A stretch of 64,000 nucleotides of DNA from an uncultured Bacilli bacterium (GTDB lineage Bacteria > Bacillota_I > Bacilli_A > RF39 > UBA660): contig CAKOQC010000001.1 of the NCBI GenBank assembly GCA_934101175.1, forward strand, positions 276,882 to 340,881, written 5' to 3'. Below, one piece after another: positions 1,939 through 40,097 of the stretch. The notes beneath the pieces are model-generated. The model was not told the origin of the DNA and did not search any database. It was given only the letters and a program-made list of their open reading frames with translations. The first letter of the stretch is position 1, and each line of letters opens with the position of its first letter. A program made the translations under genes and the position numbers.

Positions 1939-2026
1939 AAAACAAAAATCATACTTTAGTGCTTGATAAAAAAATAAATATATTATATAATTAAGAAAAG
2001 TAAAATAAAAAGGAAAAGTGATATCT

Positions 2027-3316
2027 ATGCAAAACAATATAGATTTTATTAATACACCAGTCGTAGACGTCGTTAATCGTATTATCTTAGACTCTGCTAA
2101 GATTGGTGCTAGTGATATTCACTTCGATCATACAGACCATTGTCTAAAAGTAAGAATAAGAATAGATGGTGTTCTAAATGATTATGCTGATATTCCTAAC
2201 GAAGTAAAAAATAATGTTATTACTAGAATTAAAATCTTATCTGGAATGAATATTACCGAAACAAGACTTCCTCAAGACGGTGCTATTAAAACCGAACTTG
2301 GTGGTCTAAATCTAGATATGAGAGTTTCCTCCCTACCAACTAAAAAGGGAGAAAAAATCGTAATAAGAATATTAGATTATTCAAGAAGTTTACAAGGTAT
2401 TGAATACCTATATTTTTCTGAAGATAATTATAAAAAAGTTATTAAAATGATAGCAGCCCCAAACGGTATTATCTTAGTAACGGGAGCTACTGGTAGTGGT
2501 AAATCTACTACCGTATATTCCTTCTTACAAAAGTTAAATGTTAAAGGAACAAATCTAATTACTGTTGAAGATCCCGTTGAAATGGATATCGAAGGAATTA
2601 ATCAGGTTCAAGTAAATAGTGATATCGGACTAGATTTTGCTACTGTTTTAAGAAGTATTTTAAGACAAGACCCCAATGTCATAATGATTGGAGAAATAAG
2701 AGATAGTGAAACTGCTCAAATAGCTGTAAGAGCTGCCATTACTGGGCACTTAGTACTATCAACACTACACACTAATAACTCCCTAACTACTATTGAAAGA
2801 TTATTGGATATGGATGTTGAAAGATACTTATTAGCATCAGCCTTAACTGGTATCGTATCTCAAAAACTAGCTCGTAAATTATGTGATAATTGTAAAAGAG
2901 TTAGAGCCACTTCTTCTTATGAAAAAGAAATGTTTAAAAAATTTCTAAATTTAGATGTAGAACAAATTTATGATGCTGTTGGTTGTCCACATTGTTCATC
3001 AGGATATCGTGGACGTATCGCTCTTCAAGAAGTATTACTAATCTCTCCAGAAATAAGAGATGCCATCAATGCTCGTATACCTAAAGCTAAGTTAAGAGAA
3101 TTAGTTTATAGTAGTGATGTTATTACTCTACTACAAGATGGTCTATATAAAGTAATTGCTGGACTTACTTCAATAACTGAAGTAATCAAATTAACTGAAG
3201 CTGATGATGAAGTTAATGCAGAAGAAAAAATTAAAAATACTATGATGACTGAAGAAGAAAAACAAAAAGAAGAAGACATAATTGAAAATCAAATAGAAAA
3301 TGCTTTCCAAGAATAA
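2027..3316 (+). CDS. Type II/IV secretion-family ATPase (PilB/GspE-like), short form lacking the N-terminal domain
   Basis: Walker A GATGSGKST, Walker B region VIMIGEIRD, and a tetracysteine motif CDNC...CPHC. The track ORF starts at GTG 2018. ATG 2027 has better spacing from the AAAAGGAAAAG RBS. No pilC, pilin or pilM genes are adjacent. Confidence 0.8.
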   Translation: MQNNIDFINTPVVDVVNRIILDSAKIGASDIHFDHTDHCLKVRIRIDGVLNDYADIPNEVKNNVITRIKILSGMNITETRLPQDGAIKTELGGLNLDMRVSSLPTKKGEKIVIRILDYSRSLQGIEYLYFSEDNYKKVIKMIAAPNGIILVTGATGSGKSTTVYSFLQKLNVKGTNLITVEDPVEMDIEGINQVQVNSDIGLDFATVLRSILRQDPNVIMIGEIRDSETAQIAVRAAITGHLVLSTLHTNNSLTTIERLLDMDVERYLLASALTGIVSQKLARKLCDNCKRVRATSSYEKEMFKKFLNLDVEQIYDAVGCPHCSSGYRGRIALQEVLLISPEIRDAINARIPKAKLRELVYSSDVITLLQDGLYKVIAGLTSITEVIKLTEADDEVNAEEKIKNTMMTEEEKQKEEDIIENQIENAFQE

Positions 3317-3433
3317 AAGCATTTTTCTTTTACATTACTCTAAACAAACTATCACACATAAAAAAGTCCTTATATTAATACCTCTTATCAAATAAGACAT
3401 ATTTATAAAGACTTTTACTATAAACCCTATTAT

Positions 3434-4132
3434 CTATAATTCATCATTTTCTTCAAGTAATATTTCTTCTATTTTTTTATACTCATACTTCTTAATATTA
3501 AACTTAGTAACTATATCATTAATACTACTATCAACTTTCTTCTCAGAACTCTTCTTAACAATAATATCAAAATTAATCGTATCTTCATCTACTTTAAAGT
3601 TATCCGTATCTATAGCATCATCATCTTTAAACATATCATTAATATATTTAACTACATCTTTATTATCAGTAGAAAAACTTACCCTAAATGTTTCCTTAGT
3701 AGCCATACTAGTTGTTCTATTATTAATAATTTTATTTACTTCTCTTAATACAATATTTGCAAAAAGAACAAATAATGCTCCAACAATAGCTTCTTTAATA
3801 AATCTTCCTGCGCATAACATTCCTATTGAAGCATCACACCATAAAGTAGCTGCTGTTGTAAGTCCACTTACTCTATTTTTCTCACTATTCTTAACAATAA
3901 CTCCCGCACCAAGAAAACCTATTCCTGTTACTACCTGTGCCGCTACTCTTGATACATCTAATTGATATCCTGTTATTAAGAAAGAAAAACTAACAAACAT
4001 ATAAGATCCTATTGCTACTAAAATCATCGTTCTAAGTCCTAAAGATCTTCTACGATATTGTCTTTCTATTCCTAATATAAAACTAAGTATAAAACATACT
4101 GATATTCCTATCACAAAATCTATAAATTCCAT
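3434..4132 (-). CDS. mgtC: MgtC/SapB-family membrane protein
   Basis: N-terminal MgtC signature (GIERQYRRRSLGLRTMILVAIGS), 4-5 TM helices, and a C-terminal soluble domain. Confidence 0.7.
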   Translation of the reverse strand: MEFIDFVIGISVCFILSFILGIERQYRRRSLGLRTMILVAIGSYMFVSFSFLITGYQLDVSRVAAQVVTGIGFLGAGVIVKNSEKNRVSGLTTAATLWCDASIGMLCAGRFIKEAIVGALFVLFANIVLREVNKIINNRTTSMATKETFRVSFSTDNKDVVKYINDMFKDDDAIDTDNFKVDEDTINFDIIVKKSSEKKVDSSINDIVTKFNIKKYEYKKIEEILLEENDEL

Positions 4133-4401
4133 CTACTAAACCTCTTTCCTATTATCATCTAATATTATATCATACACAAAACTATATTCGCAATATAACA
4201 ACTTAAAATTTATAATTTTATCAACTATCAATCTAACTAAATATAATAAAACTCTAAAAATATCTTCATTATAAAAATACATTTTCTAACATAATTACTA
4301 CTATCTATATATCTAATTAATTTATCTAAACTAGGCTAAATAACGGAACAATTTATCTTACATTGAGTAAACTATAATAGATACGAAAAGGAGGTATCAT
4401 T

Positions 4402-5500: not shown

Positions 5501-5639
5501 TAGTATCATAAGTTTTAATTCTACTTAAATATATATTTTACATCTATAAGTAAATCTTCATATAAATATTTCATATTTTTTTAAATAAATTCCATGCAAT
5601 TTTTGTAAATCTATGGTATAATTATAATTAGGTGAGAAT

Positions 5640-6164
5640 ATGAAAAGTAATTATATAATTGAATATGTTAATGAAAATGAATTTAGAAAGAAAGAAAGAG
5701 CTGTCAAGAAATATAATATGTTAGCATACAAAAAATTACTATTTGATTACTATCCAAGCCTTCGTGAAGGAAATTTTCAAGGTGTATTAGTATCTTCTAA
5801 TGAAAAAGATATGATTGATAAGTATGAATTAACATTACCTACTGATAAGACTTTCACTATGGTTCATGGTAATATTACTCTTCATTATTCAGTCTATTTA
5901 AATCAAAAGATTGTCATGTTAGAAACCTTAACTCCAGAAGAAATATTAACTGAAGGTCATCAAAAAGAACTAACTACTTATAAAGGTGTCATGGTATCTA
6001 AATCCCATAAAGAATTAGATATGTTTAAAATAAATCTTTTAAATAGTATGAATAAGAATGGTTTCTTTAAATTAAATAAGTTATCTATCTGGATATTAAG
6101 TATCTTATCTGTTATCTTATTAACAATAATTACTATCTTATCTGTAAAAGCTATAATTAAATAA
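5640..6164 (+). CDS. Hypothetical protein, paralog A1 of 39669..40097, with an extra C-terminal TM anchor
   Basis: Residues 4-140 are ~65% identical to the 142 aa protein at 39669..40097. Examples are NYIIEYVNENEFRKKERAVKKYNMLAYKKLLFD and LTEGHQKELTTYKGVMVSKSH. A C-terminal hydrophobic helix is added. Confidence 0.4.
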   Translation: MKSNYIIEYVNENEFRKKERAVKKYNMLAYKKLLFDYYPSLREGNFQGVLVSSNEKDMIDKYELTLPTDKTFTMVHGNITLHYSVYLNQKIVMLETLTPEEILTEGHQKELTTYKGVMVSKSHKELDMFKINLLNSMNKNGFFKLNKLSIWILSILSVILLTIITILSVKAIIK

Positions 6165-28187: not shown

Positions 28188-28313
28188 ATCTTACTACCTC
28201 TCTTTACTAATACATTATAATTTTATCATATCTATTTCTATTTTACAAACAAATTATCTTATTTAGAATTATTTTCCATCAAAAACTTAATTTTTGTAAA
28301 TGTCAACATCAAG

Positions 28314-28511
28314 ACCTAAAAAAATTAGCAATACAAAATTAATGTACTGCTAATTCGTATTATCCCATTTTCATCATTTTATTACTCACAGGAACCTACT
28401 GTTTATGTATTTAATCACTTATGTGATTAGGAACTAAACCTCTACGATAATCCATATTTGTAATATCCTTGAATATTAAATACTGAAGACATAAGTCTTA
28501 TATATTGTAGT
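28314..28511. repeat. Conserved ~195 bp 3' flank shared with 46867..47048
   Basis: About 95% identical to 46867..47048. On the minus strand it contains a small hairpin (aagac-ttat-gtctt) directly after the stop codon, a palindrome aatcac-tta-tgtgatt, and a ttagca...tgctaa hairpin plus T7 run, which is a candidate terminator. Confidence 0.7.
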
Positions 28512-30368
28512 CTAGGCCACCAACGAAGAACGAAATCCGCTGTTGTTGTTGGCATTGCCATGGTAGTTGCTAAAGTAAAACACGCCGACAGTAGAACCAC
28601 CGCTATAGCCGCCGCCTCGCCTCAACCATGGGTAATTGGCACTAACAAAGCCCGCGTAATCACCATACCAACTACTAACCTCGGATAAACCATGTCCATA
28701 ACATATTCCACCATTACAAGCAGTTAAGGCATTAGTCGTTGTATAATCATCATAATATTTACTATCTGGTTTACTATTAAACCCAGCACTATTTCCTCCC
28801 CATGTTGTACTTGCACCACTATAATATCCCATGACATATTCATATGCTCCTCCAGACATATCATATATTCCCGTAATATTTCCTGTGGTACTTGCTACTT
28901 TTGTTAAATCTCTTGTACTACTTTTGGTATTAGTACCATAATTTAATAAATATCCATCCCACGTATAATATCCATAACTATTGTATTGTTCTGTTGAAGT
29001 TTGAGCTGTATATGTTTTATTTATTGGAGTTTGGTAGCCAACATTGCCACCACTTCTTCCAGTATAATATGATGATGAGTTATTAATATATATTTCTCTA
29101 TTTGCTCCATATTTTGAATGTGATAGATATGCAGCGGCTCCCCATTCATCATTCTTCATCATATGACTATCTGTGTTTGAAGTTATTCCGTATGTTGTAC
29201 CACCTAGTAACTGTGCTGTAGTGAATTGTACTGATACTTTTTGACTTCTTAATGAAGATACATCTGGTAATATTGTAGGACTAGAAGCTGTACCTGTTGT
29301 TTCAAATTTTCCTACCCATATTCCTGATAACTCTTCTCCTTCATCTCTTACTCCATCACTATCATTATCCCACCAAAATGCTGGGTGAGTTATATATTCG
29401 CCAACTTGTGTTCCTTTTGATATTGTATCTTTATCTTCAAAAATTATATCTATTGTTTGTTCTTTACCATTTTCATCATTGTCAGCTATAGACCATATCT
29501 GATATTTATATCTTGGTATCCAGACATAATATGCAAGTATATCTGCTTGATTAATTTCTACTCCAGAATTATTTTTATAATAATCCCTAGTTTGAGTACC
29601 ACTCTCTTTTACTAATACTACATTAGCCCATTCTTGATTAGAATAATTATACCAAGAATTATCTGTACTAGATATTGTTTTTATTACCGTACCATTTGAT
29701 GTATCAAAAACTATTGGTATCATTCCATCATCAAGTACTGGTGCATTAGGTTCTTCTTTTTGGTCCACACAGCTTCCATTTAAAGAAAGTTCAAATGATT
29801 GGTTCATGGTATCTGAACTAGTTTCTTTAGCATCTAACCATATCCATAAATAATATGTTTCTGTTGTAGTACTGCTATAATCTTTATCTGTAAATAGTCT
29901 TACTTTATTATTTTTAGCAAGTCCTCCAAAATTACCAGAAATAATTACTCCAGTATCTTTATCAGTACTACTTGTATTTAATACATACATTAAATTACTA
30001 CTGATAGCTAAATTATCTGAAATACTTTTTATATCTAACCATAAGTCCATATAAATAGTTTTACCTTCTTTAGTAATCGTAGGCATTACTTTTACTTCTC
30101 TTTTTATATAGTTAGCTGTGGTAGTATCGTTAACTTCTGTTGGTATTAAATTAATTGTACCTGATGTGATATCTCCACCACCATCAGCTGCACAACTAAA
30201 ATCACTTTCAATGGTGAAGTTTACTACTGTCTTTTGTTCTTCGGTACTCTGCCAACGCCAATATGCTAAAGTTCCCCCAATAATTGCAATTACTAGTCCA
30301 AATATAGCAATTATTATCAATGTTTTCTTATTTTTTTCCATACATTTCTCCTTCAAAAAAGTCCTCAA
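28512..30368 (-). CDS. Membrane-anchored surface protein with a C-terminal FGE-sulfatase / C-type-lectin-like domain, copy 1
   Basis: 618 aa with an N-terminal signal anchor. C-terminal FGE-domain-like motifs are EWGAAAYLSHSKYG, GIYDMSGGAYEYVMGY, RRGGGYSGG and the terminal GFRSSLVA. The last ~50 codons are GC-rich. It is ~80-85% identical to copy 2. Confidence 0.6.
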   Translation of the reverse strand: MRTFLKEKCMEKNKKTLIIIAIFGLVIAIIGGTLAYWRWQSTEEQKTVVNFTIESDFSCAADGGGDITSGTINLIPTEVNDTTTANYIKREVKVMPTITKEGKTIYMDLWLDIKSISDNLAISSNLMYVLNTSSTDKDTGVIISGNFGGLAKNNKVRLFTDKDYSSTTTETYYLWIWLDAKETSSDTMNQSFELSLNGSCVDQKEEPNAPVLDDGMIPIVFDTSNGTVIKTISSTDNSWYNYSNQEWANVVLVKESGTQTRDYYKNNSGVEINQADILAYYVWIPRYKYQIWSIADNDENGKEQTIDIIFEDKDTISKGTQVGEYITHPAFWWDNDSDGVRDEGEELSGIWVGKFETTGTASSPTILPDVSSLRSQKVSVQFTTAQLLGGTTYGITSNTDSHMMKNDEWGAAAYLSHSKYGANREIYINNSSSYYTGRSGGNVGYQTPINKTYTAQTSTEQYNSYGYYTWDGYLLNYGTNTKSSTRDLTKVASTTGNITGIYDMSGGAYEYVMGYYSGASTTWGGNSAGFNSKPDSKYYDDYTTTNALTACNGGICYGHGLSEVSSWYGDYAGFVSANYPWLRRGGGYSGGSTVGVFYFSNYHGNANNNSGFRSSLVA

Positions 30369-30548
30369 GTATTCTACTTTATAGCTCTTTATTATGGTTA
30401 AATTATACTATAAATAAAGGAATTACACAAGATATATAGATAAATTTTGTAAGAAAAATTTCTAACTTTTATATTTTAATATTTTTAAATAAAGTCAATA
30501 TTTTCAAGGGTTTATGTTACATTTATAAAATTATTAAGTAGAATACTT
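30367..30548. promoter_or_regulatory. Invertible promoter switch, orientation ON for copy 1
   Basis: A 156 bp core (30380..30535) is flanked by perfect 13 bp inverted repeats, aagtattctactt (30367..30379) and aagtagaatactt (30536..30548). The core is the reverse complement (~90% identity) of the core at 49334..49489. A minus-strand sigma-A promoter TTGTGT-N17-TATAAT (30402..30430) points into the copy 1 gene. Its RBS is GAAGGAGA. Confidence 0.75.
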
Positions 30549-30590
30549 TATAACTTTTTTCTTTTATATTATTATAGATAAAGAAAAATC

Positions 30591-32624
30591 TTAAGTTTTT
30601 CTTCTTAAGATTTTCATTGTATTAATTATTGTAAGTAAAGTAACTCCTGTATCAGCAAATACTGCTTGCCACATTGAAGCTATTCCTAAAGCACATAGTA
30701 TAAGTACTAATATTTTAACTCCTATTGCAAAAATTAAATTTTCTTTAATAACTTTCTTAGTATATTTAGATATATCAATACATTTAACTATACTATCTAA
30801 TTTATCATTCATAATAACGATATCTGAAGCTTCTATTGCCGCATCACTACCAATACCTCCTAAAGAGATACCTACTGTTGCTAATGATATAGCTGGTGCA
30901 TCATTAATTCCATCACCTACAAAAGCTATATCTTTATTATTCTTTAATTCTTCTTGTAATAATTTATATTTATCTTGTGGTAATAATTCATATAAAACAT
31001 CTTCTATTCCTACTTTAGAAGCTATATCTAATGCATAATTCTTACTATCACCTGTATACATCTTAGGAGTTATTCCTAATTCTTTTAGTCCTTTAATCAT
31101 TCCTTTAGCATCACTTCTAATACTATCTTTTAAAATTAATTTTGCTACATTCTCATTATCTATATTTAAATATATTGCTTCATCACTAACATCTGATTTA
31201 CAAAATGCTGCTGATCCTATTAAGATAGTTTTCTTATCTACTTTAAAACTAATTCCTTTTCCTGATATTTCTTTAAAATCTTTAACTGATAAAGTAGACT
31301 TCTTATTAAATATCTTTATAATAGATTTTGCTAATGGATGGTTAGAAAGACTTTCTCCTGCTACATAATAATTAATAATATCTTCATCTTGATATTTATT
31401 ATCTAATAAGATTAATTCATAATCTGTAAATTCTCCAGTTGAAATAGTACCAGTTTTATCAAATATTATCTCTTTAATATTACTAATTTCATCTAAGTAA
31501 TCACTTCCTTTAATAAGTATTCCTTCTTTAGAACATTTACCTATTCCTGAAAAATAACTTAAAGGTACTGAAATAGCTATTGCACATGGGCATGATATTA
31601 CTAAGAAAGTAAGTCCTCTATATAGTGCATCATTAAATGAGATATCTTGTGTAAGTAATAGGAAAATTACTGTAAGTACTGCTAATATTAATACTATTGG
31701 TGTATATATTTTAGCAGCTTTATTAACTGTTGTTTCTACTTTAGCTTTTCTATCAGTAGCATCATCTAATAAAGTAAGTATTTTAGCTACTGTACTATCT
31801 TCATATTTATTAGTAACTTCTAAATATATTAAATTAGAAGTATTAATAGTACCTGATATTACTTTATCTCCTACATCTACTTTTAATAGTTTACTCTCTC
31901 CTGTAATTGAAGCTGTATTTAGTTTTGTACTTCCCTTAGTAACTATTCCATCTAATGGTATTTTCTCACCTGGTTTTATCATAATAGTATCTCCTACTTT
32001 TACTTTTGAAGGTTCTACTACTAAAGTATCTTCTTCTGTCACTAAGTTAGCATATTCTGGTTTAATATTCATAAGTTCTTTAATAGATTTTCTTGAATTA
32101 TTAACAGCTATTCCTTCTAATACTTTTCCTATATCATATAGAATAATTACCATTAATCCTTCATGTATATTATTTGTAAAATATGCTCCAATACAAGATA
32201 TTGTAATTAATAAGTTCTCATCAATATTCTTCTTTATTAATAATTTAAATGCTTTAATAATAACTTTATATAATAATATAATATAAGAAGTTATTATTAA
32301 TATATCTCCAACTATTCCTTTAAAAGCATACATTCCTAATAAAGCTAATATTATTCCTAAAGTAAGTCTTAAAACTTCTAATTTAGTATTATTTTTCTTA
32401 TTATTATCATTACTTTCAAGTACTCTTACATCAGGTTCTATTTCTGCTACTATCTTCTCTACAAGTTCTTTAACTCCTTTATCTTTCTTTGTATATACTG
32501 TTACTGTTAATTTATTAAAGTTTACTATAGCTTTATCTATTTCTTCATTTTCATTTAATTTTCTTTCTATTTTATTAGCACAATTAGCACAATCTAATTC
32601 ATTTAATATATATTTATATTTCAT
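30591..32624 (-). CDS. cadA: Heavy-metal (Cd/Zn/Pb-type) translocating P1B-ATPase
   Basis: N-terminal HMA domain with CANC, then CPC in TM6, DKTGT and GDGINDAP. Confidence 0.85.
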   Translation of the reverse strand: MKYKYILNELDCANCANKIERKLNENEEIDKAIVNFNKLTVTVYTKKDKGVKELVEKIVAEIEPDVRVLESNDNNKKNNTKLEVLRLTLGIILALLGMYAFKGIVGDILIITSYIILLYKVIIKAFKLLIKKNIDENLLITISCIGAYFTNNIHEGLMVIILYDIGKVLEGIAVNNSRKSIKELMNIKPEYANLVTEEDTLVVEPSKVKVGDTIMIKPGEKIPLDGIVTKGSTKLNTASITGESKLLKVDVGDKVISGTINTSNLIYLEVTNKYEDSTVAKILTLLDDATDRKAKVETTVNKAAKIYTPIVLILAVLTVIFLLLTQDISFNDALYRGLTFLVISCPCAIAISVPLSYFSGIGKCSKEGILIKGSDYLDEISNIKEIIFDKTGTISTGEFTDYELILLDNKYQDEDIINYYVAGESLSNHPLAKSIIKIFNKKSTLSVKDFKEISGKGISFKVDKKTILIGSAAFCKSDVSDEAIYLNIDNENVAKLILKDSIRSDAKGMIKGLKELGITPKMYTGDSKNYALDIASKVGIEDVLYELLPQDKYKLLQEELKNNKDIAFVGDGINDAPAISLATVGISLGGIGSDAAIEASDIVIMNDKLDSIVKCIDISKYTKKVIKENLIFAIGVKILVLILCALGIASMWQAVFADTGVTLLTIINTMKILRRKT

Positions 32625-33339: not shown

Positions 33340-34290
33340 ATGACAGAAACTCTAAAAGAAGGAGAACTTATTCCTCTTACTTTTGATATCATGTTCACAG
33401 AAATCTTTAATAATCCAGATAATATCTGTATCTTGGAAGAATTTATCTCTAATTATTTAGATATTCCCCTAAATCTTGTTATTGGTAATTTAAAAATCTT
33501 ATCTCGTAGACTTTCAAAAGAAGAACGTTATGATTCTAGAAAAGAAGTAGATCTATTGTTAAATTATCAAGGTAAAAAGATTAATATTGAAATGTCTAAT
33601 AGTGCTAGTGATGGTGTTATTAATCGTAATGTCGTTTATTTATGTAAAATACATGGAAGGCAGCTTAAAACTAATGATATTAACTATTCTAAGATTAATG
33701 ACACTATTCAAATTATGTTTAATAACTTTGATACTGATAATGATTTGAAGACTACTTGGTATTTACGTGATGATGCTGGAAATATTTTAACAAGTAAACT
33801 AAGAATCGACATTATTAATCTAGTCAAAGGAAAAGATTTATGTTATACTGGTAGTGAAAAAGTTGATTATCTCATTAACTGGTGTAAATTATTAACGACA
33901 AATAATAAAGATAATGTTAAAAACATTTCTTGCCAAATAATGAGCCATAAATCAACTAACACACTCATGAGTAATATGAGTATGTTAAGTGAGGAGAATG
34001 AAATGGTTAGATTATATACGAAATTAAGTCGTCGTGAAATGGAATATAACACTCTAATTGTAGAAGCTACCGAAAAAGGTCTCAAAGAAGGTCGTCAAAA
34101 AGGACTAGAACAAGGGATTAAAGAAGGACTAGAACAAGGCATTGAACAAGGCATTGAACAAGGCATTGAACAAGGTATCAAAGAAGAAAAAACAAACATT
34201 GCCAAAAAGATGATTAAAGAAAATATCGAAACAGAGACGATCTCTAAAATTACTGGTTTAACTAAAGAAGAAATAGCTAAGTTAAAATAA
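33340..34290 (+). CDS. Rpn-family recombination-promoting nuclease / putative transposase (PDDEXK_7, YhgA-like)
   Basis: 316 aa with a C-terminal tail of KEGLEQGIEQGIEQGIEQGIKE repeats, typical of this family. It has a strong RBS (GGAAAGGAGGTG). Confidence 0.55.
   Translation: MTETLKEGELIPLTFDIMFTEIFNNPDNICILEEFISNYLDIPLNLVIGNLKILSRRLSKEERYDSRKEVDLLLNYQGKKINIEMSNSASDGVINRNVVYLCKIHGRQLKTNDINYSKINDTIQIMFNNFDTDNDLKTTWYLRDDAGNILTSKLRIDIINLVKGKDLCYTGSEKVDYLINWCKLLTTNNKDNVKNISCQIMSHKSTNTLMSNMSMLSEENEMVRLYTKLSRREMEYNTLIVEATEKGLKEGRQKGLEQGIKEGLEQGIEQGIEQGIEQGIKEEKTNIAKKMIKENIETETISKITGLTKEEIAKLK
34080..34185 (+). repeat. In-frame 12 bp tandem repeats (ggcattgaacaa x3 plus diverged units) encoding EQGI
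   Basis: Located inside the rpn-like gene. They are coding repeats, not CRISPR. Confidence 0.7.
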
Positions 34291-39668: not shown

Positions 39669-40097
39669 CTATTTTTCTATCATATTTAATAGATTAATTT
39701 TAAATATATCTTTCTCAGCATGAGACTTAGATACCATTACTCCTTTATATGTAGTAAGTTCTTTTTGATGTCCTTCTGTTAGGATATCATCAGGTGTAAG
39801 CGTATCTAACATAATAATTTTTTGATCATGATATACTGCATAATGCAAGATTATATCTCCATGCACTTTATTAAACATACTATCAGTAGGTAATTTTAAT
39901 TCATAATTAGTAATATTCTTCTCTTTATTATGAGATACCATTACTCCTAGAAAATTACCATCTCTTAATGAAGGATAAAAATCAAATAATAATTTCTTAT
40001 AAGCTAACATATTATATTTTTTTACTGCTCTTTCTCTTTTTCTAAACTCATTTTCATTTAGATATTCTATTACATAATTATTATTCATTTTATCCAC
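39669..40097 (-). CDS. Hypothetical protein, paralog A2 of 5640..6164
   Basis: 142 aa. See paralog A1. Confidence 0.4.
   Translation of the reverse strand: MDKMNNNYVIEYLNENEFRKRERAVKKYNMLAYKKLLFDFYPSLRDGNFLGVMVSHNKEKNITNYELKLPTDSMFNKVHGDIILHYAVYHDQKIIMLDTLTPDDILTEGHQKELTTYKGVMVSKSHAEKDIFKINLLNMIEK

Follow-up and report, generated by a model that had tools for sequence, protein, structure and literature searches.

Two short DNA segments that very probably act as invertible promoter switches (invertons) were found in a 64 kb stretch of the genome of an uncultured Bacilli bacterium (lineage RF39; UBA660; assembly GCA_934101175.1, contig CAKOQC010000001.1, positions 276,882 to 340,881 of the forward strand), hereafter called the window. 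The two elements (182 bp each) lie upstream of paralogous genes for predicted surface proteins. With high confidence, each is read as a promoter-bearing segment of 156 bp that is flipped by a recombinase encoded outside the window and gates the adjoining gene. Both segments were found in both orientations in natural populations, with identical cores and no mismatches in the flanks compared, which supports the conclusion that both flip in nature and that the switches are really invertible. Each of them flips independently of the other; the state seen in the window is gene 1 ON and gene 2 OFF. All positions are those of the window unless another contig is named, and L and P numbers are handles for the contigs and loci compared with it.

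Inverted repeats and invertible cores

At locus 1, the gene-proximal repeat (30367-30379, AAGTATTCTACTT, nearly dyad-symmetric as AAGTA-TTC-TACTT) and the gene-distal repeat (30536-30548, AAGTAGAATACTT) are exact reverse complements of each other and enclose a 156 bp core (30380-30535) that is in the ON orientation. At locus 2, the gene-proximal arm AAGCATTCTACTT (49321-49333) and the gene-distal arm AAGTAGAATGCTT (49490-49502), again exact reverse complements, enclose a 156 bp core (49334-49489) in the OFF orientation. The perfect 13 bp inverted repeats of the original prediction, which had been made from the letters of the window, were thus recovered at both loci at the same coordinates. The guanine-cytosine (GC) content of the locus 1 core region (30400-30599) is 14%. 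Exact matches to AAGYATTCTACTT in the 64 kb were restricted to the four repeat arms; when up to one mismatch was allowed, 5 matches were obtained against 0.71 expected, a number reached in 0 of 100 shuffles.

Copy 1 and the reverse complement of copy 2 were 94% identical over 182 nt, and 87% identical over the core in an ungapped comparison; the first estimate for the mutually inverted cores had been about 90%. No match was obtained when the cores of the two copies were aligned in the same orientation. A separate repeat finder returned the pair as an inverted match of 205 nt (30356-30560 versus 49309-49513). The two loci had also been described as collinear outside the repeats; this holds for the entire gene side and, on the far side, for about 17-20 nt past the distal repeat. 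The single base by which the two loci differ in their repeats, previously taken as locus-specific, proved not to be so: the T variant occurs at locus 2 in other strains. At position 4 of the locus 2 repeats, both arms were C/G or both were T/A, never mixed, in every contig seen.

Both orientations in natural populations

Locus 1 was compared among independent human-gut metagenome assemblies that encode the exact product of gene 1 (609 aa) and that came from the Hadza and MERR22 cohorts and from different assemblers. The segment was ON in L002, L005 and L006, and OFF in L001, L003, L004 and L007. The 156 bp core was 100% identical across these contigs, and the flanks of L001 (OFF) showed 0 mismatches in 4,000 nt to those of L002, L005 and L006 (ON).

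For locus 2, look-ups with the exact proteins of gene 2 and its cluster mates returned OFF copies only; P0122, which also came from the gene 2 look-ups, is a different locus in the ON state. The locus was reached in other strains via the conserved upstream GtrA protein (ten places). It was OFF in L093, L096 and L101, and ON in L097 and L100, where the cores matched the reverse-complemented window copy at 100% identity. The flanks of L096 (OFF) and L097 (ON) differed at 0 of 2,500 positions. Alternate orientations at the level of reads or strains had been named beforehand as the test, and they were present at both loci, with identical cores and no flank mismatches; the interpretation as phase variation by invertible promoters is supported by both states at both loci.

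Several contigs stop at the repeats: L007 ends exactly at the distal repeat of locus 1 and L008 exactly at the proximal one, while L020 and L021, from the related genome CAKOPG, begin exactly at a repeat. Such breaks may be explained by mixed orientations within a sample, because these would produce them.

Five strains (L092, L094, L095, L098 and L099) carry repeat-less alleles of locus 2, in which the intergenic region is 129 nt shorter. In these alleles (about 1885-2066), a promoter TTGTAT-17-TATAAT, followed by TTAACCATAATAGAAAGCAATAAAGT joined to GAGGAC, faces the gene; the promoter-proximal portion of the core has a fixed orientation toward the gene, and the proximal repeat is reduced to AAGT. 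By its sequence, this arrangement reads as a natural locked-ON allele, and the promoter that was kept facing the gene would therefore mark which of the promoter-like sites is functional.

In the JGI metagenome collection, no match was found to either of the locus 2 junctions, both of which were sought, and a scan with the core promoter returned one short contig of the OFF type. A scan of a viral collection gave 0 matches. The organism is present essentially only in ENA assemblies.

Predicted promoters, terminator-like hairpins and proposed switch logic

A promoter facing gene 1 was located in core 1 (30402-30430, minus strand) by direct reading and with a regular expression; it consists of TTGTGT (30430-30425), a 17 nt spacer and TATAAT (30407-30402). 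The promoter in core 2 (49439-49467, plus strand; TTGTAC, 17 nt, TATAAT) faces away from gene 2. The opposite orientations that had been proposed, toward gene 1 (ON) and away from gene 2 (OFF), were therefore both seen in the window. The description of these promoters as near-consensus for sigma-A was justified for the -10 box, which is a perfect TATAAT in both cores, but overstated for the weak -35 boxes, where 3 of 6 positions match TTGACA. In a promoter scan, the core 1 promoter was unlisted and the core 2 promoter was listed as TGTACA-16-TATAAT.

The promoter within the segment is predicted to drive the adjacent gene in one orientation only. This prediction draws on the perfect -10 box, the 17 nt spacer, the conservation of position and direction in diverged relatives, and the retention of the promoter toward the gene in the repeat-less alleles.

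Locus 1 is preceded by a P-type ATPase gene, with an ArsR regulator, and locus 2 by a GtrA-family gene, with a glycosyltransferase. Folding placed a terminator-like hairpin followed by a U-run after the P-type ATPase gene (30584-30615, minus strand; -10.4 kcal/mol, z = -1.86) and another after the GtrA-family gene (49540-49593, minus strand; -22.8 kcal/mol, z = -3.7). A terminator scan that required at least 3 G-C pairs gave no match at either locus; the folded structures are AT-rich hairpins with U-runs. An Rfam search of 28200-30700 returned no element. The hairpins upstream of both switches would insulate each gene from the read-through of its neighbour. Expression of each gene would depend on the orientation of its switch, because the promoter lies inside the element and terminator-like hairpins follow the upstream genes.

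Of the four defining features of the inverton class, flanking repeats and both orientations were observed, and an internal promoter, predicted from good sequence evidence, would be the third. The arrangement of the cwpV type, with the promoter outside and the orientation controlling termination, was not found: the only conserved promoter sits inside the core, and the terminator-like hairpins are upstream of the element, none of them within it.

The proposed mechanism is as follows. A site-specific recombinase encoded in trans would flip the 156 bp segment between the 13 bp AAGTA-N3-TACTT sites. In the ON state, the outward-firing sigma-A-type promoter would direct transcription across the proximal repeat, past the ribosome-binding site and into the gene; in the OFF state, it would fire away from the gene, and read-through from the neighbour would be blocked by the terminator-like hairpin upstream of each switch. 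The outcome would be ON/OFF phase variation of alternative surface variants.

The same site in related genomes

One search for the protein family gave 6,077 matches at E <= 0.001 among 8,000 candidates scored, with no name among the 120 listed; its members are very numerous and come almost exclusively from metagenomes. When one genome per species was scanned, 79 loci were obtained, nearly all of them in uncultured 'Bacilli bacterium' bins (human, rabbit, goat and mouse guts), with others in Clostridium sp. CAG:914 and CAG:762; more than one paralogue is present in many of the genomes, often several.

The same switch architecture was found upstream of paralogues at 40-60% protein identity (L011, L014, L016, L019, L022, L025, L028 and L030). 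The repeats of these relatives are inverted AAGTA-N3-TACTT pairs, at times extended to 20-24 bp. The cores measure 145-180 bp, and the proximal arm ends 12-35 nt before the start codon. An outward promoter (e.g. TTTACA-17-TGCTATAAT) ends about 22-35 nt from one arm; in those genome representatives in which its direction was read, it faces away from the gene. Other paralogues (L010, L012 and L015) have fixed promoters and no repeats. By genome, switches are present in CAKOPG, CAJJKI and CALVON, and absent from the loci seen of CAKOOM.

In 771 kb, comprising the window and the loci, the site motif occurs almost exclusively as inverted pairs, 169-193 nt apart from start to start. The site is dyad-symmetric, with 5 bp half-sites around a 3 bp centre (TTC, TAA, TAT or TTT) that gives it polarity, and it is conserved across loci whose cores have diverged past easy alignment. 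Taken together, the conservation and the dyad symmetry have the signature of a protein-recognised site.

Search for the recombinase

The absence of an invertase gene from the window, which had been noted at first, was borne out by two approaches: a Pfam scan of all open reading frames (ORFs) of at least 150 aa found no Phage_integrase or Resolvase domain in the 64 kb, and recombinase motifs, sought in 1,049 translated segments (window and loci, each of 90 aa or more), were found nowhere in the window. Likewise, none was found beside the switch-bearing loci. Because no such gene lies in either place, the recombinase is probably encoded outside the window and acts in trans on all sites. A recombinase in cis, as in the fim type, is not among the neighbours, which are the P-type ATPase and ArsR genes at locus 1 and the GtrA and glycosyltransferase genes at locus 2.

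Two enzymes were considered as the invertase and rejected, since each adjoins a family gene without a switch: a phage-type tyrosine integrase (L027, 345-1637) and a large serine recombinase (L079, 2479-3897). Both sit immediately upstream of their family genes, and both are probably mobile-element integrases or insertions. The L079 enzyme follows an ORF for a 214 aa D-Ala-D-Ala carboxypeptidase, which may be truncated.

A PD-(D/E)XK nuclease-family transposase (Rpn-like; 33340-34290, plus strand) is encoded between the two loci; it is recombination-promoting and is not a site-specific invertase.

The class of the enzyme was approached through the locus 2 repeat. Position 4, 3 bp away from the centre, shows the same change in both arms, and contigs that differ there differ nowhere else. 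This concerted change suggests resolution of a heteroduplex, or conversion, within a staggered-cut overlap of about 7 (6-8) bp. An overlap of 6-8 bp is a feature of tyrosine recombinases, and this class is favoured here with moderate confidence.

Alternative explanations

Were the two cores simply inverted once after duplication and no longer switching, the window would look as it does, with one state per locus, and all three look-ups with exact or near-exact protein 2 did return OFF. Such a fixed ancient inversion is nevertheless highly improbable given both states at both loci, 100% identical cores and zero flank differences; moreover, contigs break at the repeats and the arms have been kept perfectly matched. 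An assembly artefact, in which the orientation of a segment between short inverted repeats would be arbitrary, is equally hard to credit. All of the evidence does come from metagenome assemblies, and some contigs end at the repeats, but the contig names (k141 for MEGAHIT, NODE_ for SPAdes) imply k-mers much longer than the 13 bp of the repeat. In de Bruijn assemblers, a repeat below the k-mer length leaves the orientation unambiguous, and ambiguity would require both junctions in the reads. Both states also recur across different assemblers and cohorts, and the window itself is in opposite states at its two loci. Only slightly less improbable is general (RecA-type) or replication-slippage recombination without a dedicated recombinase, a possibility raised by the lack of a recombinase gene in the window or beside the switch-bearing loci. 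Efficient homologous recombination needs more than 13 bp, so that the arms are too short for it, and a dyad-symmetric site with an asymmetric 3 bp centre, conserved across diverged cores, points to recognition by a protein.

A different kind of alternative keeps the switch and changes the enzyme, which would be a serine invertase (Mpi-like or Hin-like) rather than a tyrosine recombinase. It is unlikely, yet it is the most serious competitor: in Bacteroides fragilis the unlinked global serine recombinase Mpi acts on many promoters with one consensus repeat, and dyad-symmetric sites with a small asymmetric centre resemble those of the hix/gix type. However, the symmetry centre here is a single base or a 3 bp unit, not a 2 bp core, and the change of position 4 in both arms together fits a 6-8 bp overlap better. 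The inverton interpretation of the two loci is held at high confidence with several points weighing against it: orientations were compared between assemblies from different samples, not among reads of one clone; no recombinase was found in the window or beside the switch-bearing loci, which leaves the enzymatic step wholly inferred; the class of the enzyme is judged from one covarying position; the -35 boxes are weak (3 of 6); and the AT-rich region holds other promoter-like matches, e.g. TTGTAA-17-TATATT, which lies inside the core in the opposite direction.

The two genes and their proteins

Gene 1 (28512-30341, minus strand) encodes 609 aa and starts at an ATG at 30341, with the ribosome-binding site GGAGAA at 30351-30346. 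Gene 2 (47432-49294, minus strand; ATG at 49294, also with a GGAGAA ribosome-binding site) encodes 620 aa and is 79% identical to gene 1. The original prediction had extended both genes to TTG codons at the limits of their ORFs (30368 and 49309); the ATG starts with GGAGAA agree with public gene calls and replace them.

Each protein comprises a membrane anchor at its N-terminus, a beta-sandwich domain and, at the C-terminal end, a region that is FGE/C-type-lectin-like; both are predicted to be membrane-anchored surface proteins. For their earlier designation as FGE-domain proteins, Pfam gave sub-threshold matches only (PF03781, FGE-sulfatase; 17.0 and 18.6 bits versus a cut-off of 23.3); longer homologues carry PF03781. 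From these features we infer an FGE/C-type-lectin fold at the C-terminus. AlphaFold modelled the C-terminal half with low confidence (mean pLDDT 40.8, then 55.5). The N-terminal beta-sandwich was predicted with fair confidence, and for it Foldseek returned only weak matches, to pilin-like beta-sandwiches; a sequence search of the PDB with the protein gave no match. At three related loci, a prepilin-like ORF (...KGFTLVELI...) lies directly downstream of the family gene (e.g. L024, 5425-5859).

The C-terminus (...RGG.Y...G.F...N...GFRSSLV) is encoded by DNA of raised GC content (35% at 28400-28599 and 42.5% at 28600-28799, versus about 23% in the downstream gene) and varies between copies in an NNC codon pattern. 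In these respects it looks like the variable region of a diversity-generating retroelement (DGR). Among 12 strain alleles of gene 1, the C-terminal 270 residues (340-609) are invariant, and the alleles differ in discrete N-terminal blocks within residues 1-310 (e.g. 106-152 and 284-293). This mosaic suggests gene conversion between paralogues.

Link to diversity-generating retroelements

DGR variable proteins with an FGE-type C-type-lectin fold have been described, such as TvpA of Treponema (PMC5006420, PMC6328139). The proteins of the window share with the TvpA type the C-terminal pattern ...RGG.Y...G.F...N...GFR and the NNC codon variation. They differ in that neither a reverse transcriptase nor a template mismatching their genes specifically at adenines was found in the window, and in that the gene 1 C-terminus is invariant over the 12 alleles. 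The reverse transcriptase was sought by tblastn with the enzymes of relatives, which gave no match in the window better than E = 0.5, and no RVT_1 domain was found by Pfam in window ORFs of at least 150 aa.

A remnant at 47061-47205 was rejected as a template for genes 1 and 2, to which it has 41 mismatches (18 at its adenines) and 49 mismatches (17 at its adenines), respectively. The remnant is similar to templates found in relatives, with no bias toward adenines: of 23 mismatches, 6 fall at adenines of the template. It is one of three GC-rich copies of the C-terminal segment in the window, the others being the gene ends (28512-28670 and 47432-47600), and lies as an orphan downstream of gene 2. 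A 149 nt non-coding element is found directly 3' of gene 1 at locus 1 (28355-28503) and directly 3' of the orphan remnant at locus 2 (46905-47053). It is 98% identical between the loci, the adjoining coding DNA being about 78% identical, and Rfam gave no match across the locus 1 copy. The element may stem from a recent duplication of the segment, or it may be a 3' element associated with a DGR.

In relatives, the C-terminal region is a true DGR variable region, as seen at four loci (L021, L058, L059 and L075), where a template repeat lies 200-400 nt downstream of the variable region and is accompanied by a reverse transcriptase; a relative's enzyme was identified as RVT_1 (Pfam, E = 8.7e-15). 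Substitutions fall at template adenines in 17 of 18 cases in L021 and in 21 of 22 in L058. L021 (1-4146) carries the variable region at 1701-1841, the template at 2034-2177 and the reverse transcriptase at 3103-4146. Its template also matches the variable regions of two other loci of the same genome, CAKOPG, with 19 of 21 substitutions at adenines in L020 and 15 of 20 in L019. At the genes of L019, L020 and L021, either an AAGTA-N3-TACTT switch is present or the contig breaks at the switch repeat. By these patterns, which are direct evidence, one DGR in CAKOPG serves at least three paralogues, and phase variation and targeted hypermutation would fall on the same genes.

A scheme of two-tier surface variation is tentatively put forward, at slightly less than even confidence: a family of invertons with one unlinked recombinase would gate the genes, and a single DGR would rewrite their ligand-binding C-termini in trans. 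Of the two tiers, the genome that holds the window shows only the invertons. In the literature library searched, no report of DGR targets under the control of invertible promoters was found; as negative evidence this is weak.

Other features of the window

The window encodes the outer spore coat protein E (CotE), and the neighbouring genes have a GC content of about 22-30%. A type II/IV secretion ATPase (T2SSE) is encoded at 2018-3316 (plus strand); with the prepilin-like ORFs and the pilin-like fold matches, it raises a possible connection of the family to a pilus or pseudopilus. An inverted repeat of 412 nt (76% identity; 5634-6045 versus 39683-40094, 33.6 kb apart) overlaps two ORFs (5640-6164, plus strand, and 39669-40097, minus strand). 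Pfam assigned no family to either ORF, and the pair appears to be paralogous genes on opposite strands, with no function assigned.

Significance and comparison with known systems

These observations document a phase-variation system in an uncultured, reduced-GC human-gut lineage that is known from metagenomes only, and natural ON, OFF and locked-ON alleles are already present in public assemblies. The conserved 13 bp site is usable as a probe, with which all switches could be mapped and the recombinase found by co-occurrence. The switches also break metagenome assemblies at predictable points. Most attention is deserved by the layering of invertons on DGR targets, in which the switched gene family is, in relatives, also subject to hypermutation by a retroelement. 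The DGR link suggests that expression switching and targeted hypermutation can be layered on the same surface receptors, and it bears on evasion of phages or immunity by gut bacteria.

The multi-locus scheme with a recombinase in trans would work like that of Bacteroides Mpi or C. difficile RecV, with the promoter placed as in fimS. Like the Mpi invertons of B. fragilis, the system has several dispersed loci in a gut commensal, short promoter segments (about 150-230 bp), consensus inverted repeats, independent ON/OFF states, alternative surface structures and, as proposed here, an unlinked recombinase. The repeat consensus differs (AAGTA-N3-TACTT here, ARACGTWCGT for Mpi), as does the cargo, which consists of single protein genes in an uncultured low-GC lineage of the Bacilli class, whereas Mpi controls polysaccharide operons.

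RecV is a single tyrosine recombinase that acts in trans on several C. difficile sites. Its switches (flgB, cwpV and cmrRST) are likewise found in a member of the Firmicutes, measure about 150-200 bp and lie upstream of surface or motility genes, but their repeats vary by site, whereas a strict consensus is seen here. The cwpV and flgB switches, placed downstream of their promoter, exert their effect once transcription has been initiated; here, the element itself contains the promoter, as in fimS. In fimS, which is inverted by FimB and FimE, the promoter within the invertible element also reads through the repeat into a surface-structure gene. However, the fim recombinase genes adjoin their switch and none adjoins the switches here, and fimS is a single locus of 314 bp with 9 bp repeats, compared with a family of loci with 13 bp repeats and, in the window, 156 bp cores. 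This kind of switch is already known in gut bacteria; here the consensus of the site is new, and so are the lineage of the host and the cargo.

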